Source of the DNA: Catajapyx aquilonaris
Taxonomy: Eukaryota
Direction: 5' to 3'
Length of the DNA stretch: 40,223 bases
Assembly (NCBI GenBank): GCA_000934665.2
Contig: JYFJ02003556.1
Location: 1-40,223 of the forward strand
Shown here: piece by piece, positions 4,735-38,440 of the stretch
How positions within the stretch are numbered: the stretch's first letter is position 1
Layout of the letters: the number at the start of each line of letters is the position of its first letter
The notes under the pieces: model-generated
Databases searched by the model: none
The model's input: only the letters and a program-made list of their open reading frames with translations
What the model was told of the DNA's origin: nothing
Translations under genes and position numbers: made by a program

Positions 4735-7700
4735 ATGACCCCAAGCAATAAGTCGCCGGAAGCACAAGAACTAGTCAGCAAGTGGAGATGGGTCATTCTC
4801 TTCCTGTACATTGTATCCAACGTTTGCAACTGCTTCCATTGGATAATGTTTTCTGCAATAAGTGACACTGTCATGAAGTACTACAGCGTGACGGCGATTG
4901 CCGTCGAATGGCTTTCTATGGCTTACATGCTATCCTACACGCTTCTCTTTCTTCCCATGACCTACGTCATAGAGAAAAAGGTAATTAATCCTTAACGCGA
5001 TCATGCTATTTTGCCAATTTTGTACAGCTAATTTTGGTAAGGGTTTGAGATTCACGGTGTTGACTGGCACCTTTCTGACTGCCGTGGGAGCCTGGATTAA
5101 AGTGGTGTCGGTGTCTCCGGACCTGTTCTACGTCACTGCCATCGCTCAGTCGGTGGAGGCAGTTGCAGAGGTTTTCCTGTACGGTATTCCTCCCTACATT
5201 GCTGCGACATGGTTCGGACCAGACGAAGTGTCCAGGGCCTGCGCTTTGGGATGCTCGTCCACATTGGTCTGTACAGTACGTAGCAGTCAAGAAATAAAAT
5301 AATGACAGTCAATAATTTTAATTCAGATAGGAACAGCCCTTGGAATGCTGGTCCCCTCAATGATTGTGGCTGACAGCGACAACCACAGGAGCATCGCCAC
5401 GAGATTAAGCACAGTGTTTTACATCGGAAGCGTTCCGCCAACAATCTTCTTTGTGCTGATGGTATTTTGTACGTTGAGATTAACCGAACTGCCTCATTGC
5501 GTAGCACGCTCATCTAATTTATTTTTCCTAATTATATTTTCAGTATTTGACAATGCGCCACCGAAACCGCCGAGTTCGTCAGCGGCAGGTTTGCTCTTGT
5601 CCGGTGTGACCAAAAGATATAAGGATTCGCTGAGAAGCGTCATAAGAAACAAGCACTTTGTTCTGCTCCTGATCACTTACTCTATTGCAATGGGAGTAAG
5701 CGAGGCGGTTCTGACCCTTCTGAATGACTTGGTGCTTCCTAGTTTCCCGGTATGACTTTAACTACTCTTATGCAAGTACAAGGACAGCATTATACAGTTG
5801 TTCCGCATGATTTTTTTCCGGTTTGTTATTCGAAACAGTTTAAAAGCAAATTTCTGCAGGATTTACATTCTAATGTGCAAAAATGCAATTTTTTGTAACT
5901 TTTAGTAGCGAGGGAATTTGTAATTAATTATAATTATTGTATATTATCTACATTTGACTCCAGGTATTTGTATTTCAGATGTACCCTGAAAGTGCAGGAT
6001 GGCTAGGATTCATATCCATGATGGCTTCTTTATGTGGAGCATATATAACGGGAATTTTAATGGACAAGACTCACCTCTTTCGGTCAGTGAAATTAATCAG
6101 TGTGTTTTGGAAACTTGTGTAGAATCCTTAGTAAAATCAGTTGTCTTTTATTTGACGTTACTTTAGAGTACAGTGCCGTGCACAATAGCATATAACAAGC
6201 AAATAACAAGTGTAAACAACGACTTTGGCGTTACCTGGCAACTGGGCGTGTTCGGACATCGGCATGTGGAGAGTGCTTAGCGATCTTTCTGTCATTGCCA
6301 CTGTTTACAGGTAGCGATTGATGCTGGGCGACCTATAGCGAAGGGTGTGTGCATGCTTACCAATGCATGGCATCGGAATAAGCGGGCTGAGGAGATATTA
6401 TTTTGAGAAGGCGCTTCGTTATTATCACACTATCGTCACTGTCTTATTCCCACGATGATGGAGTTATTATCAATCGCTACCTGTAAACAGTGGCAACGAC
6501 AGAAAGAGCGCTGAAGCACTCTCTACATGCCGATGTCCGAACACGCCCAGTTGCCAGGTAACGCCAAAGTCGTTGTTTACACTTGTTATATGCTATTGTG
6601 CACGGCACTGTACCAGCACACATACAGGGTGACTTTAACACATGTAATTGGATCGTATTGTTGATTTCCAATTGTGCCAACTAGCAGATTGTTGTCAGTC
6701 AGTATAGGATGAGTTGGTATACGGTTCAATTGTAGTTGGCACAACTGGAAACCAACAATATAATCCAATTACATAATTATACGTATATCATGACTTTATA
6801 TAGTGACCCTGTAGCATAATACACGGTGATCCGTTTGGGTATAGGGATAGTTTTAAAATGCTGTGGTATGTGTTGTAACAGACAGAATTGATCCAAATTA
6901 GGCGGAGATTACCACTATGAATGGGAGTAATGTTTGTCTAGGTCTCCGCATGACCCCCTTTACGTACTCGGTAGAGTTGCTTTCGGGTGCTTAATTCCTG
7001 CCACGTGTTTTGTAACATTCCCGGAGTGATTTTTGCGAATGCTACAGAAATTTTCACCTCCAGGTCATCCAGGCTTTGAGGTCGTTTTCCGTAGATGATA
7101 GTCTTCACAAACGACACACAATGAAATCGGGGGGAGTTAGATCCAGGGAGTTTGCAGGCCAAGGAATAGGGCCACTACGACCACACCAATATTAATAGAC
7201 AGTGTTGTTGATCTTCCTGACTTCCAGTTCAGCTTCCAGTGACCAGTAGAGTGGGACCCCGTCTTGCTGAAAAATGACATTGTTGTCCAGTTGTGGTACC
7301 AAAATAAGATCTTAGAATGTCAAACTATGGACCTGCTCGTATTGTGTCCTCCAAGAAGGTAAAAGGTCCGTACAGCTGGTTACGCCACATCCAGCCTCTT
7401 TGGTCACAATGTATAGGGCCAATGCAGGCGCACTGAGTGCAGTGCACGACCCTCCCATCTTACCTCGCCAAACTGGCAGAATTTCAACTTGGTACGGCTT
7501 ATGTGTTGATTGTGTTACATATTTTTAATTGTCCCTACCCAAACGGATCACCCTGTAATGTATACATAGTACAGTACATGTGCCACTGAATAAATTACTG
7601 CGCTTTTTACCTGCAGGGAGGCAAACATATTTTTCAATGTCACGAGCGTAGCTGGACTTCTTAGCTTCACCTACGCCCTTTACTGCCAGAACATCAATTA

Positions 7701-8126
7701 TGTTTATGCCTCTGTCGTTTTATATGGGTGAGTTGCAGCCACAAACGTTGAGTAAAATTACCAACAAGACCGCATGTTACATTCTACTTTGCCTCCAGGT
7801 TATCCGTGGCTTACGTCACCTTTGCCTTCGACTATGGTGCTGAATTATGCAATCCCAAGGAAATTGTGATCATGGGAAATATCGTCTGTGTCGTCGGCCT
7901 TGTAGGCGGGATTGGTGTAGTGAATGTTGCAGGCTGGATACTGCAAGACTATGGCAGCCTTTCTTCGCTCCTGTACTTATGCGCGCTGTTAGTTGTAGCT
8001 ACGTTGATAAGCTTCTTCACACGAGGAAAGTACCAGAGGTGTAGTACATCCGAGTCTCCTGCTCGTCCGCGTGAAGAACCCGAGTCCCTTGATGCAGGCA
8101 TGCAGCCCTTTACTTGTACCGTGTAG
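4735..8126 (+). CDS. FLVCR: FLVCR/SLC49-like MFS transporter, array copy 1 (453 aa, most divergent)
   Basis: Exons 4735-4980, 5042-5266, 5327-5468, 5544-5749, 5979-6082, 7617-7727, 7799-8126 splice in frame. Motifs: RWVILF, NCFHWI, GAWIKV, WFGPDEVS, PPKPPS, DKTH. An acceptor at 4720 implies a 5' UTR intron. The symbol is a family label, not an orthology claim. Confidence 0.88.
6171..6610. mobile_element. 440-bp MITE with ~140-150-bp TIRs and TA TSD (Tc1/mariner-type), in intron 5 of copy 1
   Basis: TA|CAGTGCCGTGCACAATAGCATATAACAAG...CTTGTTATATGCTATTGTGCACGGCACTG|TA. The arms remain complementary through CAGGTAGCGATTGAT / ATCAATCGCTACCTG. Confidence 0.9.
6625..6811. mobile_element. 187-bp MITE with CAGGGT termini and TA TSD
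   Basis: TA|CAGGGTGACT...AGTGACCCTG|TA. Internal inverted arms are ATGTAATTGGATCGTATTGTTGATTTCCAATTGTGCCAACTA and TAGTTGGCACAACTGGAAACCAACAATATAATCCAATTACAT. Confidence 0.75.
6822..7555 (-). mobile_element. Internally deleted Tc1/mariner-superfamily transposon (rosa/maT-like) with transposase remnant
   Basis: TA|CACGGTGATCCGTTTGGGTA...TACCCAAACGGATCACCCTG|TA. Minus-strand fragments read VIFQQDGVP, WPANSLDLTP and VKTIIYGKRPQSLDDLEVKISVAFAKIT...GGH, matching the FQQDGAP and WPARSPDLTP motifs, with frameshifts. Confidence 0.85.
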
Positions 8127-10811: not shown

Positions 10812-12913
10812 ATGGCAACCCCGCAGAGTCCAACTGAACCAATGGAACTGGAGGATAAAGCAGAAATCAAGGTGTACAAGAGGCGATGGGTAATGCTGGG
10901 CCTGTTCTGCGCCTGCAACATGTGGAACTCATTCCATTGGATACAATATTCAATCATCACGGACATCATCGTCAAATACTACTCCGTTCCTGCTTTCGCC
11001 GTCGATTGGTTGTCTTTAGTCTTCATGGTCTCCTACCTCGTGCTCATTTTCCCAATCATGTTTTTCGTCGACAAGCGAGTGAGTTACTCTATACAGTTTT
11101 TAGACACAATCAGTTGCTAACGTTTCCTTTAATGTTCCGTCTCGTTTCAGGGATTTAAACTGACAGTTCTGTTAGGAACTTTAGCCATGGCTGCAGGCAG
11201 CTGGATTAAAGTGTTCTCCGTAGCTCCAGACCGCTTCTATTTAACATTCATAGGACAGACTGTGGCTTCAATCGCTGAAGCTTTTCTGTACCGAAGTCCC
11301 CCTCGTTTTGCTGCTCTCTGGTTTGGTCCTGACCAGGTGTCCACTGCATGTTCCATTGGTGTCATCAGCTCGCAGGTAAGTCGTTAATCCAATAAGCGTG
11401 CCATCTGTAGCTCATGCAATGTCATTTGCAGTTGGGAACTGCAGCTGGATTTCTGGTCCCTACTCTTGTCGTCTCCGATTCTGCCAGCACTGAAGACATT
11501 GGGCGAGATCTGCAAGGACTGTTTTACGTCAGTAGCATTGTTGGAACTGTTCTCTTCGTTTTGGTAGTTTGCTGTAAGTGTAACCTATACAGACATGCGT
11601 ATGGTATTTTACTAGTTCACACGACTAATGAACATTATAATTCCCTTGACAGTCTTCAAAAACGAGCCTCCGACCCCTCCAAGCCCTGCTCGAGCAGCAG
11701 CGCAGTCTATTCAAGAGACAACCAAGTACAAGAAAACCATAAAGAGCATGATGACCAATTGGGGATTTGTGTTGCTGCTGCTGGCCAATTCGCTCGTTAG
11801 CTCTGCGGTTGATGCCGAAAATATTCTTCTGAATCAAATCATCCTGCTTAAATTTCCGGTAAAGCCATTCACAAAAATATAATTTCTTCTATTTCTGACA
11901 AAGTTTATGTGATTCAACAGGGCAACAACCAGAACACGGGCAGAATGGGTCTTGGAAATATCTTATGTGGAATAGTTGGCGCTTTCTTAGTTGGCATCTG
12001 GCTAGATAAGACACACCGGTTCAAGTAAGTGTATTAACGAGTAAACATTACAGTCAAAATATCTCAGTAAAATTTGCAGGATATTTCGTAATACCTGTCT
12101 CTTTCCCATCAACAGAGAAAGCGGTGTCGTCTTAAGCGGTCTTTACTTCGTCGGACTGCTGGGATTTTCTCTGAGTGTATACTACAACTTCTTGCCTTTG
12201 GTCTACGTATTTTTTCTACTCAGCGGGTACGTATTACTGACACTTAATTTTTCCTGGAACGAATTACTTCGTCACAAAAACTTGCAAAAGAATTAGCAAA
12301 AATAAGTTGTACAATCTTCGTCATTCTCGTTGCACTTTAAGCATGCTAAATGTGCCCCAATAATGCACAGGTCATGATCAGATCTAAGCAGTTATGTAAC
12401 CTCTAGAGTGCAGTATTTCCCCGCCCGTATGCAAATTACCCCTGCCGGCCGGCCCATTGGCGCTGCCTGCCTGACCATGACCGGCATGATGCATGCTCAT
12501 GAGACTCTATCACATCCTACTTCCTTTTGACTCATGCCCCGCCCGCACCTCTCTTCGCCAGCCTGTTCTACGGAGCCTACTTGTCCCTGGGGTACGAGTA
12601 CGGAGTGGAGCTGACATACCCAGAGCCGGAAGGGACACTGGGTGGTCTCCTCAACATCGGGACGTTCGTCTTAGCTGTCGGAGTAGTGTCTCTCGGTGGA
12701 TGGATCCTGAGGACATTCGGTGACCTGAGTGCGACCTTGTTCTTCGCTGGCCTTGGCCTGGTCGCCTTCGTGCTTATGTGTCTGATCAAGGGCGACCTGA
12801 AGAGGCTCAACAAGCAGAAGGAGGCAGGCGAATCCAGTTCAAATGCCACTGCCACGGACACCGCTGCTGCAACGGCAGTGAATGGCGTCAAGGACAAGCT
12901 GGCTCTGCCCTGA
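10812..12913 (+). CDS. FLVCR: FLVCR/SLC49-like MFS transporter, array copy 2 (468 aa)
   Basis: Exons 10812-11078, 11151-11375, 11432-11573, 11653-11858, 11921-12024, 12116-12226, 12562-12913, all GT-AG. Motifs: YKRRW, NSFHWIQYSII, WFGPDQVSTACSIGV, PPTPPS, WLDKTH, ELTYPEPEG, DLKR. Confidence 0.93.
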
Positions 12914-13689
12914 TTTCACTTTTGTAAGACTGACTTTGTAATTTGAATCGTTGTAAATATACAGTTATTTAATTCAAGTTGTACGCCTAGTGCATTGTAA
13001 TATTTACCACATCGATGCCATGGTGAAGGAGAAGGAAACTCGTGGCAGAAATTCCGGGAAATTCAGTACGCATGTGTTGCGCACGCCTATCATGACTCAT
13101 GCAGCCTTTTCTTACCAAATATCACCAATTCATGTCAACGTAGGCTAAAAATGAGCCATTGTGTGATGCTAAGAAACATTGAAATGTAGACTTAGGTCCG
13201 GTTGTATTTAATCGATAGTATTGTGCAAAAACATGTGAAAAACATGGACCAACGACTACTTGTTCTGAACCGGCCATCAACCGCTCAAAGGCACCTTAGA
13301 AGCTTTGTAAATTCTCTCCTGCAAATATCTATACAAAATGAAATTATATTATAGGAGCGCAAAAATTATCTTGAGGAAGCAACATGTGTGTAAGGTTATT
13401 GCACCCCAGATAATAAACTGTCTTCTGCACTAGATAATGAGGATAGGCCTGTTTGCTCTACGCATTTCGCTTTTATTCAGGTAGTCTCCGGTTCTGGTAT
13501 CTAAAGCCGGTCAGCAGCTGGACGCCGCGCCGGTGGGGATGGTAAGTCAGTTCAAATGCAATCCACGGGGGTCAAAGTATTTGTTGACTTATGGCCACAT
13601 CCTCCATTTACATAGCGTAGGGCAGATGCTTCTAGTCGTCTCTGATTTCTTGAAGCAGCAGCAGATGAGATATCCCGCAGGAAGTGACC

Positions 13690-15679
13690 ATGGCGGAGAC
13701 TGTGCCTGCGGAGATCACCCTGTACAAGAAGAGATGGGTGATGCTGGCCCTGTTCTGTGCCTGCAACGCCCTCAACTCCTTCCAGTGGTTCCAATATTCA
13801 ATTATCGCCAATATTGTAATGAGGTATTACGACGTATCGGCGGTGGCTGTCAACTGGCTCACTATGATATTCATGGTGTCATACTTGATTCTGATCTTCC
13901 CCACCATGTTCATTCTGGATAAGAAGGTGCTTTGTTTGCGGTTGGCTCTAATCCGCGCAAAATATTTTTACATTGTTTACTTTTTCCGGAATGATGACAT
14001 AAATTTTTCGATTGTTAATGACGTACAGTCTCGCACATGTTTTAGTTCCTAACGTCGACCACGGTGTAACAATTGGAAGCATTATTATGTGCTTAGCTCT
14101 ACTTTCTTGGCTATTGGCCACCTTTAGTAGTGTAAAGTTTGACTGTGCAAGTGTGCATGAGAGTATATCTTAAATCAAAGAAATATTTTGGCCTCACACA
14201 TATTTTGCCTCATTTCCAATAACCTGTCACACTCTATCACATTTTATATATTTCTCCCCCATATTTCATCCCTAGGGTTTGAAACTGACTGTCTTAATCG
14301 GCATATTGTCAATGACCATGGGAAGCTGGATCAGGGTAATGTCGGCTCAACCGGACCGATTTTACGTGACTGTGATTGGCCAGGCTGTCGGATCCATCGC
14401 CGAAGCCTTCCTCTACAGAACTCCTCCTCGACTGGCAGCACTTTGGTTCGGACCAGACGAGGTCTCCACAGCATGTTCCATCGGTGTAGTCAGTTCTCAG
14501 GTACACCGGTCCCAATCCCACACTGCAGGCTAATAAGTAATAATGTTGTTTTAATAGGTTGGAACGGCATTTGGATTTCTTCTGCCTTCAGTAATAGTGG
14601 ACAACAATGCAGAAATTGATGATATTACGTATGATCTGAGAATATTATTCTACGGGTTCAGTATTATTTGCACGGTCCTGTTGGTTTTAGTCGTGATATG
14701 TAAGTTGTTGCATCGCATTCAGTAACTGGTACTACACAATGTCACAAAACGCCTTTAGTCTTTCAGAGTGAGCCAAAAGTTCCTCCAAGTATGGCTCGTG
14801 CCTCAGCCATTACCAGTGCGGACACAGACAATTTTCAAAAGTCGATTAAAAGCATGGTCACAAACCATGGCTTCATTCTGTTGTTCTTATCCAATTCTCT
14901 CATGAGTGCTGCTGTGGACTCTGCCAATGTGCTTTTGAATCAAATCATTCTGAACAAATTTTCGGTAAGTTCAACTTGACTTGTGACGTGTAACATGACT
15001 TAACGCCTTTTCTTGCAGGATCAACAACAAACTCCGGGAAGATTAGGCCTTGGAAACATCATTCTTGGGGTCATAGGAGCATTCTTGACAGGAGTGTGGT
15101 TAGACCGATGTCACAAGTTTAAGTAAGATTCGCAATAAGTATCTTCCAATGCAGGGGAAATTATGCACATTTTACCGGCAGGTTCAGTGGTGTTATGTCC
15201 TGTGGCCTCTACTGCTTCTCTCTCATTGGCTACACATACAGCGTGTACTATGCCTTTCTGCCCATGGTTTACGTCTCATTCTTGCTCACTGGGTAAGTGA
15301 TGTGAAACCGTTGGTCGTTTTTATTACTAATGCAAATTATCGTCGCAGGTTGTTCTACGGTGCATACCTGACCATCTCGTATGAATTCAGTGTGGAACTC
15401 ACCTATCCAGAACCGGAAGGGATGATGGGAGGGCTGCTCAACATTGGAACATTCATAATGGGAGTAGCTGTGATTAACCTTGGCGGATGGATATTATCCA
15501 CGTATGGAGACTTGTGGGCAAATTACTTTTTCTCGGTCATATCCTTCGCAGCCTTGATTCTCATGCTTGGAATAAAAGAACACTTGAAAAGATTGGGAGC
15601 CCAACAGAGTGAAAAGCAAAAGCTGAACGCTAGTAAGTCATCACTTGAGGCAGGGAGCACTCCTCCTCAAGAAATATGA
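13690..15679 (+). CDS. FLVCR: FLVCR/SLC49-like MFS transporter, array copy 3 (451 aa)
   Basis: Exons 13690-13926, 14276-14500, 14558-14699, 14759-14964, 15019-15122, 15182-15292, 15349-15679. Same motifs as copy 2. AATAAA at 15833. A possible upstream ATG exon ends at 13541. Confidence 0.93.
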
Positions 15680-16072
15680 GTCAAAATTTGGGAGTGAATA
15701 GTGTGCTGGTTACTGGTATAGTGTGTGCCATAAACTCCTAGACCATCTGATAGACTGATGACAACTTGATAATTATTATAAGAAACAGATTTTGGTGTAC
15801 TATTTATCGATTAATATTGCTATTATTGTGCAAATAAAAGTACTGTATTTTGAAACATTTTGCGTTGAGGTTGCCATGAAGTATAATGTTACATCGAGCC
15901 TACCGTATCTGACACTCTGCTGACCTTAATAATTCCATCCTCTTAGCTCGGAATGAGACAATCCAATCACCTTGCACTGAAAAAACCGAAATGGTTACGG
16001 TAACCAAAACTATTTGGTTGAGTGAGATTTGGTTGCTTTCACCAAAATCTTGGCTGAATTGAAAAAACAGAA

Positions 16073-16157
16073 TTGGTTGAAGTATAACCAAAACATTTTG
16101 GTTGAAGTATAACCAAAACATTTTGGTTGAAGTATAACCAAAACATTTTGGTTGAAG
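16073..16157. repeat. 25-bp minisatellite, ~3.4 copies (TTGGTTGAAGTATAACCAAAACATT)
   Basis: Units start at 16073, 16098, 16123 and 16148 (partial). Each unit contains a small TTGGTT...AACCAA hairpin. Confidence 0.9.
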
Positions 16158-16243
16158 GGTGAAGGGCCTATGCGATCGTTTCAACCAAAACCTTAGCTAC
16201 TACAACCAAATGTACACCATGTCAACGAAAATTTTGGTTACAT

Positions 16244-23934: not shown

Positions 23935-26585
23935 ATGGAGCTAGACCAGCAACAGGATTTCAAATTATACCGGAGGAGATGGATTATGCTCGCACTTTTC
24001 TGTGTTTGTGCTCTTTTGGAAGCGTTTCAGTGGTTCCAGTACTCGTCTATCGCCAACCTCATCGTTAAGTATTATGGAGTGTCTTACCTGGCGGTGGACT
24101 GGTTATACATGATGTTCACCTGTGTGTACATGACGTTCGTATTGCCAGCGATATTTTACATCGACAAAAAGGTATGTGGCCCATTATGTTATTAGTACAT
24201 TCACTCGAGCAATTGCAATTTACAAATGCTGTGCCTATAAAATATTTATGACGCGCCACATGAAGTGAAACATTGAAAAGTTCTGAATCAAATTGCACAA
24301 ACTGCACCATGTTTGCTCAAGTGATGCCCACATTAATTTCTTTCTGTGTTTCTGTGTGTAGTTATGACTACTTAATTTTTAGAACCTCAAGGTAACCATA
24401 TTTTTGGGAATCTTCTGCATGGCTGTAGGAGGCTGGATAAAAGTTGTAGCTGTGTCTCCTGATCTTTTCTACGTGGCGGCCATTGGTCAAGGTATAGGGG
24501 CGCTGGCTGAAGTTTTCATATTCAGAAGTTTGCTCAGGGTTGTGGCGCTTTGGTTTGGCCCAAAAGAAGCTTCTACTGCGTCTGGTATTGGAGTCCTATT
24601 CATGCAGGTAACACCTTTCAACTTACGTACGTACGTACGTACGTATATTCCGCAGTAACTCTTTTCAATTGTGCTGTCTATTATGAGACCAACATTTCCT
24701 TTATACGACGTACGTTTATACGTACAATACGTTAATTATATACGTTTATATATATATTAATTATCCGTAATATCTTTGATGCCTCCCATTTTTATCATTA
24801 TGCTATAGTGTAACTTATTTGCTATTTATTGTAGAAGAATTACATGACACGTATTTTATCACCGTCATTGTTCATGACATTTTTAAAATCCTCATGGAAA
24901 CTTTTGATGTAACGGGTCAGCTTTTCAAGTGCAATGTAACATGTGGCATTCTAGAGCACTTCACCGTCCAGCACTACAAATTCCGTTATCATCATCAGAG
25001 CTATCGGACAGACAGCGTTTCGCAAATCCAGTCATAATGGCTGTATGTGATTTTTGAAGTGGAAATCACTGAGCAAATTGATATCATTATTGATATCAAT
25101 GCAAGTAGGAAAATCCGTGTTTCAACATAAAGCAATGCTTAACAAGGATATCCCGCGTCAATTACAGAGCACATATATATGATATAAAATCGGAACATTA
25201 TTATCTTGTATACTGAACGCTACACGAACTTAATATATCCTCCTGAGACCTGATGTCCAATATATTGGACATCAGCAAAAATAAAAAGGTGTCAACTGAA
25301 ATTGACGCATTTTTTTTGCTGATGTCCAATATATTGGACATCAGGTCTCAGGAGGATATAAATTTTAGTAGAGATATTATAATTTCAGTAATTTGCAGGG
25401 TGGCCAAGCCATAAGTTTCATCTTACCAACGATAATAGTCAAGAATCACAAAGACATCAATGGAATAGGACACGACCTGAGGACATTGCTATACTCTTAC
25501 GCCATAGCAGCCTCTTTCGTCCTCCTCTTAATTTGCCTCTGTAAGTTGTAAAGACTGAAACATGACCTCATATAGAGCATGACAAATTTTTGTTGCAGTT
25601 TTCCAAAGTGCACCACCAACACCTCCTAGTGTTTCAAGTGAAACAGTAGGCAAAGAGGATGACCCTCGTAACTACAAGAAGGCCCTATGGAAAATGCTCA
25701 CCAATCGTGACTTCATGCTCGTTGTACTCGCATACTCTCTAGTTAATGCCACAACCGACTCTGCAAGTGTCATGCTCAATGAAATCATTTTGGGAAAATT
25801 TGGAACCGTAAATATCACATGTGCATTGTTGCAATTATTATGACGTACAATATCAACACTTAAGGTGTACAATCCGATATTGTCGTATTTCAGGAGTATC
25901 AAGAGACCCCTGGCAGACTAGGACTTTTATCAACAGTATGTTCGTTAATAGGCCCACTAGTAATGGGCTTGTGGCTGGATCGCACACACACTTTTAAGTA
26001 AGTCACGTGTCACCACTTCTTATAATAGAAATGGGTCACAAAATTACACCAATTTTCTTTAAGGTCCAGCGCAGTAGCAGTTGGAGGCCTACTTTTCCTT
26101 TCTCAACTGGGATACACTTACAGTGTTTACTATGCACAACTGCCTCTCGTGTACGTCAGTTACTTATTCCTCGGGTACGTCCACAGGCTTATTTCATTTA
26201 GTACGAGTTAAAATGATGATTTCAAATTAAGCCGAATTTTATTTTCAGATTCTTCTACGGATTTTTTGTGACTGTGGCACTTCCTTATGGCGTAGAACTT
26301 AACTTTCCAGAACCGGAAGGAATAGTTGGAGGGATATTCAATGTTGGACTGCAGTTGACTGAAGTTGTGGCAATCAACACGGGAAGCTGGATTCTAAGGA
26401 CACATGGTGACTTGTGGGTGAACACATTTGGATGTTGTTTGGCGGGCTTTGCTGTTGTGGGTGTTGTGATGGGAAAAGAAGACTTGAAGAGGTTGGCTGC
26501 TAGCAAAGCGAGTGCGGTTGCTTCACAGAAAATTTCGACCAATGGATCTGTCTCTGTAGAGGTCGTTTCTAATGGAAGGTTGTAG
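23935..26585 (+). CDS. FLVCR: FLVCR/SLC49-like MFS transporter, array copy 6 (454 aa)
   Basis: Exons 23935-24171, 24383-24607, 25399-25540, 25599-25807, 25894-25997, 26064-26174, 26249-26585 splice in frame. Contains ELNFPEPEG. Confidence 0.92.
24624..24645. repeat. (TACG)n microsatellite
   Basis: About 5.5 perfect units just inside intron 2 of copy 6. Confidence 0.85.
25239..25355. mobile_element. 117-bp fold-back MITE, CC...GG termini with ATAT flanks (piggyBac-like)
   Basis: ATAT|CCTCCTGAGACCTGATGTCCAATATATTGGACATCAGCAAAAA...TTTTTGCTGATGTCCAATATATTGGACATCAGGTCTCAGGAGG|ATAT, with perfect arms. The superfamily assignment is inferred. Confidence 0.8.
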
Positions 26586-27434: not shown

Positions 27435-27499
27435 TTGTTGTTGTTGTTGTTGTTGTTGTTGTCGTCGTCGTCGTCGTTGTTGTTGTTGTTGTTGTTGTT
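27435..27499. repeat. Compound microsatellite (GTT)n(GTC)5(GTT)n
   Basis: Directly visible in the sequence. Confidence 0.95.
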
Positions 27500-29299
27500 A
27501 ATTTATCTGCATTTCATGACAACTGCTTTCTACATGACTTGCTTAAATCAAATTGCTATTGTATTATTTTAATCATGATATTTACAATGCCAGTGGAAAT
27601 ACATTGGAGCTGCAACGAAATCTCTCAATGTCGGATAATTTTTCCGTAATAAACAAGTTTCGATATGTACGACAGAAATACTGTACGGTACTGTACATCG
27701 AAATTCTGTGTTACGTCGGGTCCGATCAAAAGCTCCGTGACAAGTTTTCTCTATATCTAGGGTCTATTCGAGGCTAGTTTTACTGTGTAATGTTATCATG
27801 TTCGTATTTTACTCAGAAGTGATATTTGACGAGATTAAATACGAGACTACAATTAAATGTCCTACACTATTCTCGTGCATCACCGTCGTACAAATTCTAG
27901 TACCATTAACAAAGCCAAGAGCCATTAGCTCTTGACAAAGCTCAAAAACTGTGAATAGTTTCACGTGAACGGCCAGTTCCTCTCACGTTTCGCCTTGCAG
28001 ATGCTCCTCGATTCACAGCACGTTGTAAAGAATATAAAATTACCAGATCCTACAAGTACATACTCGTACATTATACAGAAAAAAACGAAGGTCGTCCGAT
28101 TTTCCATCCTCTAGCCGGAGTTTAGCACAATAATTCCGAATCCTGCGACGGCATCGGAGGATCACCTTCATTGTGTAATCTAGTGGTAAGTTAGTTGGCT
28201 CCTGTCACCTTCACGGTGTCAACCTTGTCACGATTCATCTTTAATGTGATTTGATGTTATTCCAGTCACAATCCTAGAGCTTCAACTGCTTCCAATGCCT
28301 TGAGTGTGCAAATTGTGCGCAAGTAACTCCCATATCATCACGGTTTCATGCACTACTAGTCTACTTGATGTCCCCCTGGGAAAACCCAAGAGGGAGATCT
28401 GGGAGCGTCAAGACTTTTCACAAGTAAACAACTGTCACAGGTAGACTACAGCAAAAAGGTGATGTTGGCAGATGGTGGCATAATAACGCATGTTATTTCA
28501 AGGTATGCATATGGGATGAAGCAGTAAGGGATAAATATGGTATGGTATCAATTGCCTGTAGTGTCTTGAAGACAGAAAAATGAGCTACTTTCATGAAATT
28601 GATTGACGCTGAACTCATTTATATATTGATTAACATTTACTGCATAGCATTCAAACCACAGAAATGTTCAATCAAATATTAGTCCCCGATATGTTAAATG
28701 TTTTTATGCAGTCACACAACTCCCAATGTCACGGTCATACGCTGCCATACAAGTCATGGCTAACATGGTTTGTGGTCGCGGCCACCAGAGTAGGCTCAGA
28801 AAGTTCCCCCACAATAGAAAATAAAGGAAAGGAAGAGCCAGACGAGCCTACGTTGGCTTCAAGGACAGCAGCTAACGGTTGTCTTCCCCAGCCATTATTT
28901 TCCTCCACACTCTCAAAAGCACCAATCAATTTGTGATCTACTTTCCGGAAGAATCGGTAGTTTAGCGGCTTACTCATTCGCCGGCCAACAATGGACCACC
29001 TGTCTCTGAGCATCACGTGACTCTCACTCTGTGTAAGAACTTCTCATACATTCATTATGAGTTATTGCATACAGTCTGTAATCTGAACTGAACCAGTTTC
29101 ATACGATTTTACAACGGTATTAATTTCTTTATATTAGCCATAATCATCAAAGCACTCTTAACTCATAAATTAGGTTTCCTTGTGTGCACCTCAGTGGCCA
29201 ACAAGTACTCCATCCCCCCATACGCAGCCTGCTTGAATCCCTTGGCCTTGGACCCCAACTTGTATTGCTTATATGCAGATACGAGGCAGCAGCGACGGC

Positions 29300-31740
29300 A
29301 TGGGCGGCCAGGCCACGGACCTCGAGGACACTGCTGATGCGATCAAATCAGAGGTGCCAGATATCATTGTGTACAGACGAAGATGGCTGGTGCTGTTCAT
29401 CTTTTGTGCTTGCAACCTGTGCAACGCCATGCACTGGATGCAGTACGGGATCATTGCCAACATAATGTCTCATTACTACTCGGCGTCAATCTGGGCAGTG
29501 GATGGACTCACGGTGCTGACTGTCATCGCCTACGTGGTATTCATACTGCCTGTCACTTATTTCATGGATAAAAAGGTATGGTCTCCTTATACGTATGTTT
29601 GCATTGTTTGTATTCTTAAAGTTATTGTAATTGGCTGCTTCCTGCACATAATATGATACGTCCGCATGAACTTGTTTGAGGCAGTATTTAGATTACGTAA
29701 ATTTCTTAATTAATGACGAGAATACAGGAAGTTCTGGTTTATACGTAACGCCGATTGTGACCCTTGAATTTGCATTATTCAAGACAAAATTGATCTTTTC
29801 TTGGATAGATCTGTAACAAATTAACTCTTACTATAGATACTCCGTAGCTCTTCACATGGAGTTACTATGAAGCAGTTGAGCAGACAGTAAAACTATGTCC
29901 TACCTAACAGAGCATATAAATTAAACTTCAACGCTGCATAATTTACCAATCACGTACGTCATTCACACCCCATCATTGTTTGATACATCACGAGTCTATA
30001 TGCAGCACAAAATATTACATCGCGTGTCCTTAAGTGCAATAATCAGTCAAGCATCTGCATAAACCTGACACGTTCCCGGAACATCGGTGCAAAAATTGTG
30101 CCATATACTGATATCAAGCTACTTCCCTTCATTTTCAGGGTTTAAAATGGACAGTGTTAATAGGAACTATCCTCACAACGGCCGGAAGCTGGATCAAGGT
30201 CGTCTCAGTGGGACCTGACCTCCTTTACGTGGCTTTTATCGCTCAAAGTTCCATTGCTCTGGCCTGCGTGTTTTTATTCGGAGTACCTCCTAGACTGGCT
30301 GCAGTCTGGTTTGGACCAAACCAAGTGTCCACCGCCTGTGCAATTGGAGTGGTGTCTGCTCAGGTATACGACATCGACGTGAATATCCATGCACTTACAA
30401 CTAATACTTTTACCTTTTAGGCAGGAATAGGTTTGGGTCTTCTGGTACCACCTTATGTGATTCATGACAGTGACAACCTGGAGAGCATTGGTAATCAACT
30501 TCAGCAGATGTTCTATGGAGGCGCCGGAATTTCAACAGCGTGTCTTCTGCTTGTAATATTCTGTAAGATAATTTTAGCATGTGTGAATTAAGGTTACTTC
30601 ACTGACATTTCTCTCTTTTATGGCAGTATTTACAAGCGAGCCACCGACTCCTCCGAGTACATCTCAAGCAGCTGCCAAAGCCTGGGGTGTAAAACAAAAC
30701 TACAAAAGTTCTCTGAGGATATTCTTAACTAACAAAAATTTTGCATATCTGCTCATAGCACACGCACTGATAAACTCAGCAGTCAACGTTTTTGGAATTT
30801 TCATCAACCAAATTTTTCTGGAAAAATTTCCGGTAAATATTCCTGCAGAATGTCTTGTACAAAAATAAGTATACTAATGCAATATTGTTTAAGTCATCCA
30901 TTTGAAAACTCTTATAATAATTACGTTTAAAATGTAGATATGACTCGAAACATTCTGAACCACTCACTTTTAGACTTTTTTAAAATACTTGTGCTCCTGA
31001 AAATGTTCTACAAAGTGTAGGGTAGACTACTGACAAGTGAGTGGAGGAAACTACTACGTGGTAGAACAAACAGATAATATAATCATTCTTGAACTAATAT
31101 TTTCAGGGTCATGTTGAACACGCTGGTCAGTTGGGAAACCTCAACATTTACGTCGGCATAGCTGGTGCTTTCCTACTCGGGGTCTGGTTGGATAAGACTC
31201 ACATATACAAGTAAGAGAGTGAATGACGTGGATGATCTGCTGATAGTTCTAATTGCTGGACATTTCAGGGCAACAGGTGTGTTCATCTATGCAGGATCAT
31301 GTATTGCTTATTTCGGAGCCATGCTCACTCTCACATACCAATCATTACCAGGCACCTACGCCGTGTTTGTGTTCATCGGGTGAGTGTGTACAGTACATGC
31401 TGTCGACAGTGCAAGAGTAACATATTCTCATTTCAGATGTTTTTATGGAGCTTACTTGGCACTGGGATACGAGCAAGGGGTGGAACTGACCTACCCGGAA
31501 TCGGAAGGCATGATGGCCGGACTCTTGAATATGGTCACGTCTCTAGTTACTTTAATCACTGCGGTTGTTGGGGCATTGCTACTAAGTTCTTTCAAAGTTA
31601 TAGGAATCATTTCTTTCTTATGCAGCCTTTTAGTACTCGGGCTTTTACTCACTATTTTAATTCGTGACGATCGAAAGCGATATGATGCGCAAAGGTGCAA
31701 TGCAAATGACCAGATTCCTGAAAGTGCTCGCATGATGTGA
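29300..31740 (+). CDS. FLVCR: FLVCR/SLC49-like MFS transporter, array copy 7 (455 aa)
   Basis: Exons 29300-29575, 30139-30363, 30421-30562, 30627-30832, 31107-31210, 31269-31379, 31437-31740. Motifs: NAMHWMQY, GVPPRLAAVWFG, ELTYPESEG. Likely 5' UTR acceptor at 29278, so the start codon is uncertain. AATAAA at 32005. Confidence 0.92.
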
Positions 31741-32452
31741 ATTTGACAAAATATGCAAAATAAGGCTCGTGCAGGTTTCGCCGTTACCAGAATTCCGCTT
31801 TGTTTCAAACAATGTGGAATCTTCTAGCAATAGCAATACCGTTCCTTACAAACAAGGTTCAGAGTCCAATCAGAGTCTCCTTTCTTATTTATGAATTGAG
31901 CACAGCGCATTCCTATACACGTGGGTGTGGCAAGTTTTCGTACGGTGCATTATTTTGCACTTGAATATGTGCCAAGTTTGATAATTATTGTAATTTGCTG
32001 AGCCAATAAAATGTTACCCTATCCGGTCGTATGGCTATATTTGTACAAGCTCAACTCGTTATCAGTCATTTATATTTTATAGGATTGAACAGGAACAATC
32101 GTAACACTGACGTCTCATAAAAGGTGTTTCATAATGGTTCAGGTACATTTATAAAATGACCTTATTAAGCCATTACATACAAAGATGTGCATTTCACATG
32201 TCATAATTGTCTTACTGTGATCGAGCAATGTCGAGCAATAAAATCATTTCCTTGAAGTAAAGTAGAAATCACACCATAAAATGATCTGCTTCCTTACAAC
32301 CGTCCTTCCAGAATTTGTTCCCCAATATCATGCAAGAAAAATCCCGAATGCCTCATTTATTTTGTCAGGGTCAGGCAGACCACAAATTTCCACAAATTGT
32401 GTAATCAGAGGCTCTTGACGTCATATGTACAACTTCCAAATCCCCTCAATTG

Positions 32453-32861: not shown

Positions 32862-35085
32862 ATGATGGAAGAAGGCAGAAGTGTCGACGTCGCTGTCGTA
32901 GGTGTTGATTACCCGAAGGACACGGGCAAGGACACGTACGTCGTGTATAGAAGACGGTGGTTGGCTCTGTTCATCTTCAGCGCCTGCAACTTGAGCAATT
33001 CCTTGCACTGGTTTCAGTACGGCGTCATTTCCAACATTGTGTCCCGTTTCTATTCGGCCTCTGTTTGGGCAGTGGATGGACTCACGCTGCTTACAATGTT
33101 GGCCTACGTGCTGTTCATACTGCCAGTGACATATTTCGTGGATAAAAGGGTAAAGTTGTGCAGGTTTGCATTTTTGTTCGGGTCCTCCCTCAATGGCCAT
33201 TCCTCATACGTATGTATCAAGGACTTGTATTGCATAGGGCCCACAATTAAGTCAAATAATGCGGATTCATTTGGGCTAATAATACTACACGTTGCGAAAG
33301 CTATGCAATTGAGCACAGAGCCGGCAGGTATTGTGACGATACATCCCATGTTAGCAAGGTTGTAAGTTTGAAGGTCTGTGGTAGTGATGCATGGTATATC
33401 ACCACGTGAAGTAATCGGACCTCATCTCTGATACGTACCATTAAGTACAATAAACCAGTTCATATTTTAATAACAATTTGTTTATCCTCAGGGTCTAAAA
33501 TGGTCAGTGTTATTGGGAATTATTTTGACAACAATCGGCAGCTGGATCAAGGTCGTTTCGGTTCAACCTGGCCTCCTTTATGTGGCGTTTATCGCGCAAA
33601 GTTGCATAGCCTTGTCATGTGTTTTCCTATATGGAGTACCTCCTAGACTGGCTGCAGTGTGGTTTGGACCTGATCAAGTGTCCACAGCATGTGCCATTGG
33701 AGTCGTGTCTTCGCAGGTACGGTATGACAACAGTCATTATTTACTGCATTTATTTAACCCTAAAGTCAAAATGAATTCAGCCTTCTTGTGGCAAAAAGGC
33801 AAGCCAAAATATTTCAACAATATGTCAACAAACTAATGTTACCTCTCAGGCAGGAGTAGGCTTGGGTCTCCTGGTACCACCGTATGTGGTACACGACAGT
33901 GACGACCTGGAGAGCATTTCTAATCAACTGCAGATGATGTTCTATGGATGCGCTGGAATTTCAACAGCTTCTCTTCTGCTTGTAATATTTTGTAAGTTTT
34001 CTTACTCGTCACAGTGGTGAAGCCACGTGGTGTTTACTTCTGAGGAGGCTTAATAACCTGAAATTATTTCATCCTTGACAGTCTTCAAAAGCGAGCCACC
34101 GACCCCTCCTAGTTCATCTCAAGCCGCAGTCAAAGCCTGGGGCGAAAAGCAAGACTACTTAGGTTCCCTTAAAAAATTCTTAACCAACAGAGACTTCGGC
34201 ATACTCCTGGTGTCATATGCAATAATTAATGCTTGCATCAACTCGTTTGGAGTTTTTATCAACCAAGTTGTTCTGGAGAGATTCCCAGTAAGTGCAATGT
34301 TTTTTGAAATTTAACAAATATATAAAAAGTCATTAAGGTAGATTGTAAGTCTATGGCATAGTTTCGTCATAATGAAGATGGATAACTAAGCAACATGTCT
34401 CCTGCAGAAGCTCAAGGATAATACTCAGTTCCTTTATTCAGAATCACATAGAAGATGCTGGTCAGTTGGGAAACCTCAACATTTACGTCGGAATAGCCGG
34501 TGCTTTTATACTGGGAATCTGGCTGGATAAAACACATATATACCAGTAAGGGTTAACGGGAACACGTCGTCAATTTTTTCTAACTATATACTAAATTTCA
34601 GGTCTGCGGGTGTGTTCATATATGCAGTGTCATGCGTTGGATTCCTGGGAGCCATGTTCAGTTTCGCATACAGATCATTACCAGGCACCTACGCCACGTT
34701 TGTGTTCATAGGGTGAGTATTTAATAAATTGTGGTGCTTTTCTTATGCACGACGATTTACAACTGTTCATTTCAGGACTTTCTACGGAGCTTACATGGCA
34801 CTGGGATTCGAGCAAGGAGTGGAGCTGACCTACCCGGAATCGGAAGGAATGATGGCTGGGCTCTTGAACATGGCCACCTATTTGGGAACCTTAATCACTT
34901 CGGCCATCGGGGCAGTATTGTTAAGTTATTTCAAGTCTATGGGATATCTTATTTTTCTGTGCTGCATCTTAGTCCTGGGGCTTATCATGGCTACACTAAT
35001 TCGAGATGTGCGAAGGAGATATGACGCGCAACAAGAAAATCAAAAGAGTGAATTTGTTCATGAAAATCTGTCAGTGAATACCTAG
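32862..35085 (+). CDS. FLVCR: FLVCR/SLC49-like MFS transporter, array copy 8 (461 aa; closest paralog of copy 7)
   Basis: Exons 32862-33149, 33492-33716, 33850-33991, 34082-34287, 34442-34545, 34602-34712, 34776-35085. AATAAA at 35119 and 35156. Confidence 0.93.
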
Positions 35086-36387: not shown

Positions 36388-38440
36388 ATGGAAGTCGAAC
36401 TGAGCAGTGTCGTTAGTAACGATTCCACAGAAGGTGCATCTAAATCCAGTTACAGAGTTTACAATAGAAGATGGGTGACGCTGGCTATTTACTTCGCCTG
36501 CAACTTTTGCAACTGCATGCAGTGGATGCAGTACAGCATCATTTCCGACGTTGTGTCTCGCTACTATTCGGCATCGATATGGGCAGTGGACGCATTGTCA
36601 TTCATGATCATGGTCCCCAGTACAGTGCTCTTGTTACCAATTTCTTATATCATGGATAAGAAGGTGAGGTTTACCTGGTCTAATGAGACTGGAATTGAAA
36701 TACTGTTTTTTGTTTGTTTGAAAAGTGCAGTAAGAGCGCCATTCTATCATTAAAGCATTTGGTTGTATCAACTCAAATTAAGGAGAAAATGAAAATGTAT
36801 AGACATAATCTGATATTTTCCATAATTTGCTTCAGTACTGTACAACCAGCCCTTACAACTGACTACAGCATTTCTTTTTCCCTGCTGTACAGGGCTTGAA
36901 GTGGACAATACTCACAGGTATTCTTTTGACCGCGATTGGCAGCTGGATCAAAGTTGTTTCGGTGAGACCCGACCTGCTGTACGTGGGGTTCATTGCTCAA
37001 GGCACAATAGCAGTAGCAAGCGTCTTTTTGTACGCGAGTCCTCCTCGACTAGCTGCCATTTGGTTTGGACCTAACCAGGTTTCAACAGCCACTAGCATTG
37101 GTGTCACATCTGCGCAGGTAGTCTACATTGTCTCATTTCACCTATCTCTTTCTTGTTTTGATAATGAGGTTCAGTAGGCTACATATCTTCATCTATGTCT
37201 ATATCTTCAGGCAGGGATCGGCATGGGTCTTTTGATACCACCTTACGCAGTACACAACAGCGATGATTTGAACATTATTGGACACCAACTGCAAATGATG
37301 TTCATCATATACGCTGTCATTGCCACAGCGTGCCTGCTTCTGGTCGTATTTTGTATGCTAAGTTGTTGTTTATCAGTGCGTAACATCGCAGATGCCCAAA
37401 CATTATTTTGTAACTTGCACTTTACTTATTGCAACTTGTCCTTGGCAGTGTTTCAAAGCGAACCTGCTACACCTCCCAGCGCAGCTCAGGATGCAGCCAG
37501 AATCTTCCGCAATGAAAAGCAAAAGAATAAAAACTCTGTCAAGAAATTCCTCACTAATAGAAGTTTCGTTCTACTTCTTTTGTCGTACGCAATTGTTAAC
37601 TCGTCTAACAACGTGACTGGGACCTACCTGAGCCAAATAGTTCTCGAGAAATTTCCAGTAAGTAACGAGTTCTGGAAGAAAGGTTCAATATCACTTTTTC
37701 AAAAATTTATTTACTTATACGAATAGACTACTATTAATTACAGTATCATTAGCGGCTGGCTAAACCTAATATTAAAATCTGTCAGTGTTTGATAAGCCAA
37801 TTGATATTTTTAATTGACAACTCCAATTTTAGGGCCACGAAGAAGATGCAGGGGAGTTGGGTAACCTGTTCAACTACTCAGGAATACTTGGATCCTTTCT
37901 CATTGGCATTTGGTTGGATAAGACGCATATATACAAGCAAGTATTCCTGTATTTTATCATAGTTATTAACTAAAACCATTTTAATTATCTACCACTGTTT
38001 TCAGGGAAAGTGGTATATTCATATATGCCGTTATATGCACAACAACCCTGGGCATAATGTTCAGTCTAATTTTCCGATCTTTGCCAGCCATTTACATCTC
38101 TTTCGCAGTTTCAGGGTAAGACACATAACTAAACTTTTCTAATCAGTTTGACTACACTCTTTTTAATTTCAGAATATTTAACGGATCATACATGTCATTC
38201 GGATACGAGCAAGGACTGGAACTGACGTATCCAGAATCAGAAGGCGTAATGTCTGGCCTTATGAACACGCTTACTTGCTTACTAACTTTAGTCATGGCGA
38301 TCGTTGGAGCATTATTGTTCACGTATTACAAATCTTTTGGATTCATTTCCTTTACATGTTGCCTTTTAGCAACTGGCCTTGCATTATCTACTCTTATTCG
38401 GGATGAGAGAAAAAGATTTGATGCCGCTCCCAATAAGTAA
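36388..38440 (+). CDS. FLVCR: FLVCR/SLC49-like MFS transporter, array copy 9 (444 aa; GC-AG intron 5)
   Basis: Exons 36388-36663, 36893-37117, 37211-37352, 37449-37657, 37833-37936, 38005-38115, 38173-38440. The frame requires the donor AA|GCAAGT. AATAAA at 38472. Confidence 0.9.

Follow-up and report, generated by a model that had tools for sequence, protein, structure and literature searches.

Ten tandem FLVCR-like genes in Catajapyx aquilonaris with a diverged putative substrate pocket, predicted to be acidic in six of the copies

We analysed a stretch of 40,223 nucleotides from Catajapyx aquilonaris (contig JYFJ02003556.1 of assembly GCA_000934665.2), called the window below, which carries an array of genes related to FLVCR1 and FLVCR2, members of the SLC49 family of the major facilitator superfamily (MFS). 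A tblastn search with a termite homologue places ten such FLVCR/SLC49-like genes head to tail on the forward strand, from ~4.7 kb to the window end (Table 1). The gene models come from spliced protein-to-DNA alignment against five arthropod FLVCR-like proteins, after which every splice site and the start and stop codons were checked. Each gene has seven coding exons, exon 2 being 225 nt long, exon 3 142 nt, exon 4 206 or 209 nt, exon 5 104 nt (101 nt in copy 6) and exon 6 111 nt. Copies 1-9 are complete, with open frames of 445-469 amino acids (aa), and copy 10 is present as exons 1-3 and continues past the window end. Introns are GT-AG throughout, with one exception, the GC-AG intron 5 of copy 9. 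The initial annotation of this DNA, made from the letters alone, had proposed a rewired choline-binding pocket between positions 5042 and 37657; these limits fit the models, exon 2 of copy 1 beginning at the first and exon 4 of copy 9 ending at the second.

Table 1. Gene models of the array, with exons, key codons and residues aligned to FLVCR1 pocket positions (human FLVCR1 numbering)
Gene	Span	Strand	Product	Exons	Key codons or residues	Pocket positions	Basis
Copy 1	4711..8126	+	462 aa, acidic class	4711-4980, 5042-5266, 5327-5468, 5544-5749, 5979-6082, 7617-7727, 7799-8126	W125 4840-4842; E214 5168-5170 GAG; E349 5702-5704 GAG; extra E210	N121 W125 Y153 E214 Y218 T245 S348 E349 L471 G474	spliced alignment, canonical splice sites
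Copy 2	10812..12913	+	469 aa, acidic class	10812-11078, 11151-11375, 11432-11573, 11653-11858, 11921-12024, 12116-12226, 12562-12913	E214 11277-11279 GAA; R219 11292-11294; D349 11811-11813 GAT; extra E351	N121 W125 F153 E214 Y218 S245 V348 D349 F471 A474	spliced alignment
Copy 3	13690..15679	+	452 aa, acidic class	13690-13926, 14276-14500, 14558-14699, 14759-14964, 15019-15122, 15182-15292, 15349-15679	E214 14402-14404 GAA; R219 14417-14419; D349 14917-14919 GAC	N121 W125 F153 E214 Y218 S245 V348 D349 F471 G474	spliced alignment
Copy 4	16720..19117	+	457 aa, acidic class, four pocket carboxylates	16720-16956, 17044-17268, 17559-17700, 17770-17978, 18311-18414, 18593-18703, 18775-19117	E121 16804-16806; E214 17170-17172 GAG; R219 17185-17187; D349 17928-17930; E474 18887-18889	E121 W125 L153 E214 G218 M245 S348 D349 M471 E474	spliced alignment
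Copy 5	20034..22993	+	450 aa, acidic class, 80% identity to copy 4	20034-20255, 20346-20570, 21511-21652, 21728-21936, 22159-22262, 22471-22581, 22657-22993	E121 20103-20105; E214 20472-20474; R219 20487-20489; D349 21886-21888; E474 22769-22771	E121 W125 L153 E214 G218 M245 S348 D349 M471 E474	spliced alignment
Copy 6	23935..26585	+	454 aa, acidic class; sole copy with Q471	23935-24171, 24383-24607, 25399-25540, 25599-25807, 25897-25997, 26064-26174, 26249-26585	E121 24019-24021; E214 24509-24511 GAA; R219 24524-24526; D349 25757-25759; Q471 26352-26354; E474 26361-26363	E121 W125 F153 E214 F218 M245 T348 D349 Q471 E474	spliced alignment
Copy 7	29273..31740	+	465 aa, uncharged class	29273-29575, 30139-30363, 30421-30562, 30627-30832, 31107-31210, 31269-31379, 31437-31740	C214 30265-30267 TGC; N349 30785-30787 AAC	N121 W125 T153 C214 F218 A245 V348 N349 S471 T474	spliced alignment
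Copy 8	32862..35085	+	462 aa, uncharged class	32862-33149, 33492-33716, 33850-33991, 34082-34287, 34442-34545, 34602-34712, 34776-35085	C214 33618-33620 TGT; N349 34240-34242 AAC	N121 W125 T153 C214 Y218 S245 I348 N349 Y471 T474	spliced alignment
Copy 9	36388..38440	+	445 aa, uncharged class	36388-36663, 36893-37117, 37211-37352, 37449-37657, 37833-37936, 38005-38115, 38173-38440	S214 37019-37021 AGC; N348 and N349 37607-37612	N121 W125 I153 S214 Y218 A245 N348 N349 C471 T474	spliced alignment
Copy 10, partial	38682..39503	+	235 aa, exons 1-3	38682-39020, 39079-39303, 39362-39503	L214 39205-39207; A245; Y153 kept; Y349 position past window end	N121 W125 Y153 L214 F218 A245; 348, 349, 471 and 474 past window end	spliced alignment

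A sequence search of the PDB with exons 1, 2, 4 and 7 matched only FLVCR1 and FLVCR2 chains (E-values of the four: 2.5e-16, 1e-06, 5.5e-10 and 2.2e-12), and in a MAFFT alignment the full models align end to end with FLVCR homologues over the core of 12 transmembrane (TM) helices. In single-exon scans PF07690 (MFS_1) appeared in two exons at 16.3 and 20.1 bits, under the 33.4-bit cut-off; the related database proteins all carry PF07690. Exon 7 of copy 3, used as a database query, returned one distant protein only. On their homology to FLVCR1/2 over the whole core we class the ten genes as putative SLC49/FLVCR-related MFS transporters.

The substrate site of this family is described in several structure papers. 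In FLVCR1, W125 and Y349 are reported to engage the substrate by cation-pi contacts at the same time, with F348 along the wall of the site, Q214 and Q471 holding the hydroxyl, and a neutral cavity interior (Ri et al., PMC11168923); Son et al. (PMC10557757) give the pocket as W125, Y153, Q214, N245, Y349 and Q471. For FLVCR2, the outward-facing pocket is listed as N121, A122, W125, Y153, Q214, L218, N245 and I249, and the inward-facing cage as W125, Y153 and Y348 with M154, Q214 and Q470, in a cavity that is uncharged and has, according to a figure legend, ion-like densities beside the choline site (Cater et al., bioRxiv 10.1101/2023.10.05.561059). The FLVCR1 choline/ethanolamine site that the initial annotation had named (W125, Q214, N245, Y349, Q471) matches what is reported in PMC11168923 and PMC10557757.

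Residues are numbered here as in human FLVCR1, by phmmer of single exons (exon 2 of copy 2, exon 4 of copy 3, exons 1 and 7 of copy 4) to solved FLVCR1/FLVCR2 chains and of kiwi FLVCR1 against human FLVCR1. Exon 4 of copy 3 aligns to residues 296-362 of human FLVCR1 with D opposite Y349, and exons 1 and 7 of copy 4, set against the FLVCR2 chain 8vzn, place E opposite N121 and E opposite the G after Q470. The pocket columns were read in a MAFFT alignment of the copies with 18 named homologues, in which TM4 and TM7 are gap-free with conserved flanks. Aligning the copies to FLVCR1/2, a check that the initial annotation had itself proposed, thus maps the residues in question to choline/ethanolamine-binding positions.

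Most of the canonical site has been replaced in the array. W125 is kept in all ten copies, encoded by TGG in copies 1-9. Beyond it the aromatic cage is reduced to Y153 in copies 1 and 10 only, with neither Y349 nor F348 in any of the nine copies that can be read there, and the polar network to a single Q471 (1/9, copy 6), Q214 and N245 being absent from all ten. Every residue reported by the initial annotation at the positions of Q214, Y349, F348 and W125 is found again in the spliced models and the alignment. At position 214, copies 1-6 read AVAEVF, SIAEAF (twice), SLAEVF (twice) and ALAEVF, copies 7 and 8 have C, copy 9 S and copy 10 L; at position 349, copy 1 has E (GVSEAV), copies 2-6 have D (AVDA, AVDS, TSDT, TSDA and TTDS) and copies 7-9 have N. 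Its statement that no complete copy keeps the canonical site likewise stands, each of the nine retaining one or two of seven pocket residues.

For comparison we used 15 canonical references, from vertebrates, crabs, krill, bees, wasps, moths, nematodes and a bryozoan, in all of which positions 125, 214, 245, 349 and 471 are identical. Among the 153 columns conserved in at least 13 of these 15 proteins, and with a 12-position published pocket list, 7 of 11 pocket columns are changed in at least eight of the nine complete copies, as against 30 of 142 other columns (Fisher one-sided p = 0.0045). When the comparison is confined to the 98 strictly invariant reference columns, 13 are changed in all nine complete copies, comprising 3 of 5 pocket columns and 10 of 93 others (p = 0.016). 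The copies keep 48-75% of the non-pocket invariant residues, and copy 10, the least diverged, retains 36 of 39. Since changes are in excess in the pocket columns over other conserved columns, divergence has fallen preferentially on the predicted substrate pocket. We did not count position 357, the Q of LLNQ that is replaced by E in copies 4-6 and by D in copy 1, as a pocket change, since it varies freely among canonical insects.

The changes in the pocket include a gain of charge. Canonical references have no mid-membrane charges in TM1, TM4, TM7 and TM11 (hydropathy-defined segments, as for all TM segments here). Copies 1-6 have E214 in TM4 and D/E349 in TM7, and bear in total two to four carboxylates at or beside pocket positions, as judged by alignment to published contacts. 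Copies 4-6 additionally have E121, which is among the pocket positions in the literature, and E474, which follows Q471 by three residues; copy 1 additionally has E210, one turn before E214, and copy 2 has E351. An arginine, R219, is found in copies 2-6, where canonical proteins have G, S or N. Copies 7-9 have none of the acids E121, E210, E214, E349, E351, E474 and D349, nor R219. Of 424 ungapped columns, 12 are invariant in copies 1-6 and absent from copies 7-9, E214 being the only one of them that adds charge, and 15 differences are fixed between copies 2-6 and copies 7-9, D/N349 being one of them. There is no His cluster in the TM segments of the copies. The division into an acidic and an uncharged class drawn by the initial annotation is therefore real, and with these additional acids in copies 1, 2 and 4-6 it is stronger than had been claimed. 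By homology, E214, D/E349 and E121 would fall on positions lining the FLVCR pocket in the published structures.

The history of the array was examined in two quick maximum-likelihood trees, of 65 and 41 rows, with support from the Shimodaira-Hasegawa-like approximate likelihood ratio test (SH-aLRT). The ten copies form one clade (SH-aLRT 99) that lies within the insect FLVCR-like proteins, while the FLVCRs of crustaceans, nematodes and vertebrates fall outside. Within it, copies 2-6 branch as (2,(3,(6,(4,5)))) with SH-aLRT 99 and copies 7-9 as (9,(7,8)) with 99-100, copies 1 and 10 being unresolved at the base. Gene order along the chromosome tracks the tree, which is what tandem duplication should produce. 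Grouped with the array are insect paralogs carrying Q214 and N349 (SH-aLRT 96 in one tree and 81-82 in the other), namely Diploptera P0111, Blattella P0183, Periplaneta P0181 and P0187, Zootermopsis P0001, Anabrus P0217 and P0201, and several unnamed proteins. The trees show the array to be lineage-specific, its ten predicted genes descending from one ancestor, which groups with an insect paralog clade that already had N349.

As the nearest relatives carry Q214/N349, parsimony favours the steps N>D and Q>E. The array looks to have started from Q214/N349, with the N349 of copies 7-9 inherited; on the same parsimony D349 would have arisen by N>D (AAC>GAC), and E214 by Q>E, which is one nucleotide from either Gln codon. 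The initial annotation had pictured an aromatic partner exchanged for carboxylates, and this picture needs amending, because the asparagine probably preceded the acid. Its description of the rewiring as coordinated fares no better. The copies are one clade, monophyly of copies 1-6 is not rejected by the approximately unbiased (AU) test (p-AU 0.679, the constrained tree being 5.23 log-likelihood units better), the whole data set holds two phylogenetically independent contrasts, and in one of these, the database protein P0060, E214 stands with a canonical Y349 and so does not co-vary. The pairing of E214 with D/E349 is one event, or two if copy 1 is separate, in keeping with the annotation's own remark that shared ancestry could lie behind the covariation. 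Co-evolution of positions 214 and 349 is neither shown nor excluded.

Synonymous sites are saturated in most paralog pairs (synonymous difference, pS, ~0.8). In the seven measurable pairs the ratio of non-synonymous to synonymous substitution (dN/dS) is 0.13-0.35, with 0.35 for copy 5 against copy 4 and 0.24 for copy 8 against copy 7. Both glutamate codons, GAA and GAG, occur at E214 and both aspartate codons, GAT and GAC, at D349, and amino-acid identity between copies 2-3 and copies 4-6 is 38-46%, so that these two acids have been kept through long divergence. The copies are old and under purifying selection.

The combination of acids was also sought among database relatives. A HMMER search with exon 2 of copy 3 against 1.84 billion representatives gave 645 matches at E <= 0.001. 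Among 184 domain fragments, from the best 150 of the 645 and 28 named proteins, none has an acid at both 214 and 349, and E or D at 214 alone occurs in P0060, P0175, P0095 and P0154. The E at column 348 of the P0180 fragment was set aside as an alignment-edge artefact at a broken fragment end. A further 115 proteins, mostly of insects, include none with an acid at 214 or 349, and 72 of the 115 have the set N121, W125, Y/F153, Q214, L218, N245, F348, Y349, Q357, Q471 and G474. Several top matches (P0031, P0033, P0034, P0035 and P0039) are fusions of two or three FLVCR-like units whose pockets are non-canonical in other ways; such fused multi-unit relatives with altered pockets indicate that tandem expansion together with pocket change recurs in the FLVCR family. 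More broadly, P0029-P0035, P0039, P0178 and P0185 include predictions that fuse two to four FLVCR-like units (902-1263 aa) or are chimeras (299-474 aa), and in some of them the pocket is itself non-canonical, reading for example W-M-Y-S-T-Q, Q-L-L-C-Q or W-S-V-G-C-Q. Arrays of tandem FLVCR genes with altered pockets are present in other genomes too, those of two beetles (Asbolus and Lamprigera) among them. In the open literature searched we found no paper on FLVCR gene expansions in arthropods or on such paralogs, and the accessible part of a paper on the 'FLVCR and CTL families' has no passage on invertebrate paralogs or acidic residues.

Evidence that some of the genes are spliced as modelled comes from sequencing runs, namely four DNA runs and a run of unrecorded kind, X5. 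On positions 11800-31799 of the window, X5 contigs jump GT..AG intervals exactly at predicted introns of copies 2, 3 and 7, and the DNA run X1 has no such jumps; for this reason X5 is read as transcript-derived. Of 19 X5 joints, all 10 that were compared with the models coincide with predicted introns. In copy 2 a single X5 contig of 1666 nt spans the junctions of exons 4-5, 5-6 and 6-7 at the predicted sites, which X1 does not; in copy 3 the junctions of exons 5-6 and 6-7 are present in X5 contigs; and in copy 7 X5 contigs link exons 2-3, 3-4, 4-5 and 5-6. The joint of exons 6-7 of copy 7 is given as 31376>31436 with two letters between, which we read as the predicted 31379>31437 junction with a synonymous C>A at 31377. 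X5 contigs also lie at the 3' ends of copy 4 (18824-19252) and copy 6 (26498-26890), and neither the lack of X5 cover over copy 5 nor the position of copies 1, 8, 9 and 10 outside 11800-31799 carries weight on expression. With X5 taken as transcript-derived, copies 2, 3 and 7 are expressed and spliced as modelled. Relative to X1 and X5, copies 3, 4 and 7 have 11 coding differences, 8 synonymous and 3 non-synonymous, which leave the key codons untouched.

Further features of the locus may be noted. Along 14732-15172, from exon 4 to intron 5 of copy 3, an X1 contig has 12 base differences and a 10-base insertion behind 14732, among them the changes R>P and L>F, which affect the TM6-TM7 loop and the beginning of TM7; the differences reflect variation between haplotypes or strains. 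The depth of X1, ~30 in the background, rises to ~4100 at 25232-25362 (intron 2 of copy 6, with many loose ends) and to ~280-300 at 16021-16408 (the spacer between copies 3 and 4), and these peaks are probably high-copy repeats or transposon fragments. Homology search found no further FLVCR-like exon in 1-4600, 8130-10800 and 26600-29200 of the window, and a Pfam scan assigned no family to seven open reading frames of 106-188 aa in the flanks, in the spacers and antisense to exon 1 of copy 8, so the spacers look non-coding. The donor of intron 5 of copy 9 (37937-37938) is GC (ATACAA/GCAAGT) where copies 7 and 8 have GT; it preserves the exon lengths of the paralogs, and either belongs to a GC-AG intron or is a splice site that mutated recently. 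In copy 1, intron 5 (6083-7616) measures 1.5 kb and is thereby far longer than in most other copies, where it has 56-335 nt. Copy 1 is also the most divergent copy, with a branch length of 1.45-1.62 and a degenerate form (ELCNPKE) of the conserved ELTYPEPEG motif; its long intron, degenerate motif and longest branch indicate that it may be drifting or strongly specialised.

What might these proteins carry? From the residues we infer that the copies are neofunctionalised carriers and no longer canonical choline/ethanolamine uniporters. Known SLC49 substrates are reported to be small amine-bearing cations or vitamins (choline, ethanolamine, histamine, pyridoxine, pyrilamine). In copies 1-6 two substrate-facing amides would have become carboxylates, through Q214>E in TM4 and N349>D/E in TM7, with later, lineage-specific acids at 121 and 474 (copies 4-6), 210 (copy 1) and 351 (copy 2), so that a cavity that is uncharged in FLVCR1/2 would have turned anionic. 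Retention of the W125 lid together with the change of two amides to carboxylates fits recognition of a protonated amine by salt bridge and cation-pi contact. The reading we prefer, to which we would give a probability of about 45%, is that copies 1-6 bind a positively charged organic amine, with which E214 and D349 would form salt bridges while W125 covers it as a cation-pi lid. Candidate substrates would be a biogenic amine, a di- or polyamine, or a basic xenobiotic. Buried carboxylates are expected to titrate and could couple transport to protons or to membrane potential, R219 of copies 2-6 may pair with one of the acids, and the increase in pocket charge between copy 3 and copies 4-6 is suggestive of differing valencies, mono- versus polyamines for instance. 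Transport of cationic amines, or proton-coupled transport, by the acidic copies is plausible. In copies 7-9 the predicted pocket is uncharged, smaller and more polar (C/S214, N349, S/Y/C471, no TM charges) and has no aromatic cage, and these copies probably carry a different small polar or weakly basic solute.

Several points weigh against the preferred reading. That E214, D349, E121 and E474 face the cavity is deduced from homology to published FLVCR1/2 contacts, and in the accessible text of the FLVCR structure papers we found no published contact for E210, E351, R219 or E474. Buried carboxylates serve many roles in MFS proteins, such as proton relay, ion sites and gating salt bridges. Since the SLC49 member HisT reportedly transports an amine, such transport may not depend on acids. 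Divergence is also very high in copy 1. The trees are quick ones with SH-aLRT as their sole support, and the link to the N349 clade, at 96 in one, is just 81-82 in the other.

MFS transporters usually have their proton sites at mid-membrane carboxylates of the cavity helices. It is accordingly conceivable, though on balance unlikely, that E214 and D349, with E121 and E474, mainly form a coupling site for H+ or Na+ that has turned the uniporter scaffold into a symporter or antiporter, in which case the substrate need not be cationic. Coupling does vary within SLC49, where SLC49A4 is reported to be H+-coupled, HisT Na+-dependent, and FLVCR1/2 choline and ethanolamine uniporters that depend on neither Na+ nor pH (PMC11168923), and the ion-like densities near the FLVCR2 choline site (bioRxiv 10.1101/2023.10.05.561059) would suit such a site. 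Yet the acids stand at the exact substrate-contact positions of FLVCR1/2, so that binding would be reshaped anyway, and the up to four acids of copies 4-6 exceed what a proton relay needs. Ion coupling and amine binding can both be true together.

Drift within a retained function seems quite unlikely to us. Under this alternative the copies would still carry choline, ethanolamine or a close analogue with shifted affinity or selectivity, and the pocket changes would be tolerated. The mutants of FLVCR1 speak on both sides (PMC10557757): W125A abolishes uptake, making the residue that all ten copies keep the most critical single one, and Q214A is reported to leave choline uptake unchanged, with lesser effects of N245A and Q471A; Q214A nevertheless cuts ethanolamine uptake by 94%, and Y153A and Y349A greatly reduce uptake of both substrates. 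A carboxylate, moreover, can bind a quaternary or primary ammonium. Set against this, Y349 is absent from every copy readable there and Y153 remains in copies 1 and 10 only; the pocket columns have changed far oftener than other conserved columns; the five positions 125, 214, 245, 349 and 471 are identical in 15 of 15 canonical references, from vertebrates to nematodes; and the canonical pocket set recurs in 72 of the 115 further insect proteins.

MFS metal carriers with Asp/Glu/Cys/His sites exist, ferroportin being an example, and the clusters of three to four carboxylates in copies 1 and 4-6, with Cys214 in copies 7-8 and Cys471 in copy 9, could be read as sites for inorganic cations in the acidic copies and for soft metals in the Cys/Ser copies 7-9, which would then no longer carry organic solutes. 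We consider this very unlikely, as the strictly kept W125 cation-pi lid (10/10) better fits an organic cation, the TM segments have no His cluster, and no SLC49 metal carrier came up in the accessible SLC49 literature. Least likely of all is that some copies are decaying duplicates under relaxed constraint whose odd residues have no function: the very long branch, degenerate ELTYPEPEG and 1.5-kb intron of copy 1, the GC donor of copy 9, and the mere 48% of canonical invariant residues kept by copies 4-5 would suit decay, but frames are open, and exon lengths and splice sites conserved, in all nine complete copies, dN/dS is 0.13-0.35, copies 2, 3 and 7 are spliced in X5, and E214 and D349 persist despite synonymous codon turnover and 38-46% identity (copies 2-3 versus 4-6).

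With amine binding by copies 1-6 in mind, one may speculate further, and more doubtfully. According to this speculation, copies 1-6 would be an undescribed SLC49 subfamily in which two single-nucleotide changes from amide to acid, Q214E and N349D, and later E121 and E474, have made a choline-type uniporter scaffold carry polycationic amines (with polyamines, biogenic amines or basic plant alkaloids as candidates), driven by protons or voltage, with a pocket charge going from ~-1 in copy 3 to ~-3 in copies 4-6 and tuning valency. Were this true, the array would be a natural series for the exchange of cation-pi contacts for salt bridges in an MFS pocket.

FLVCR1 and FLVCR2 have only recently been established as the choline/ethanolamine carriers of animals. 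The array appears to keep their scaffold and tryptophan lid and to replace the rest of the pocket, and one branch of it would place carboxylates into an otherwise uncharged cavity. Should the acidic copies prove to transport cationic amines or to be coupled to protons, SLC49 would have a wider substrate range; the array would then also offer a minimal route of mutation (Q>E, N>D) from one recognition chemistry to another, and candidate transporters for the handling of amines, polyamines or alkaloids in the host. A caution for annotation follows as well: the Periplaneta N349 paralogs P0181 and P0187 are named 'choline/ethanolamine transporter flvcr2b-like' despite having no Y349, the cation-pi residue, and similarity-transferred names of this kind on relatives that have no key binding residue may mislead.

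Among known systems, the closest in structure are FLVCR1 and FLVCR2 themselves (8ubw, 8qcs, 8vzn, 8qcx), the best solved-structure matches for exons 1, 2, 4 and 7. The copies share with them the 12-TM MFS layout, W125 and, in most copies, the flanking motifs WFGP..VST, LLNQ and ELTYPEPEG. They differ in that Q214, N245, F348 and Y349 are replaced wherever readable, and Y153 and Q471 in most copies, and in that the FLVCR1/2 cavity is uncharged, whereas copies 1-6 have two to four carboxylates at or beside pocket positions. The nearest named relatives are the polyneopteran Q214/N349 paralogs ('flvcr2b-like', 'C09D4.1-like'), which have N349 as in copies 7-9, a non-canonical residue 348 in several cases and S474 in some; unlike the copies, they keep Q214, N245 and Q471 and have no acid at 214 or 349.

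In function, the most suggestive comparisons lie further away. Drosophila CG1358/HisT, 51-52% identical to FLVCR1/2 according to its paper, is an insect SLC49 member reported as a Na+-dependent histamine transporter, that is, for a biogenic amine instead of choline and with ion dependence, which indicates that the SLC49 family can carry other amines; the database 'histamine transporter' proteins of Lycorma (P0210) and Arctopsyche (P0292), however, have Q214 and Y349. The organic cation transporters OCT1 and OCT2 belong to another MFS family and have their acids on TM8 and TM11, so the analogy is one of mechanism only; their organic cations are reported to be bound between aromatic walls and carboxylates of the cavity, with one of these acids pairing with a lysine of TM4, an arrangement that resembles W125 with E214/D349 and R219. 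Finally, the lysosomal SLC49A4/DIRC2 is a distant paralog, likened to the copies by transport behaviour and not by residues. It is reported to be H+-coupled for pyridoxine and cited as H+-coupled for pyrilamine, and this union of proton coupling with an organic-cation substrate within SLC49 is the behaviour proposed here for copies 1-6.

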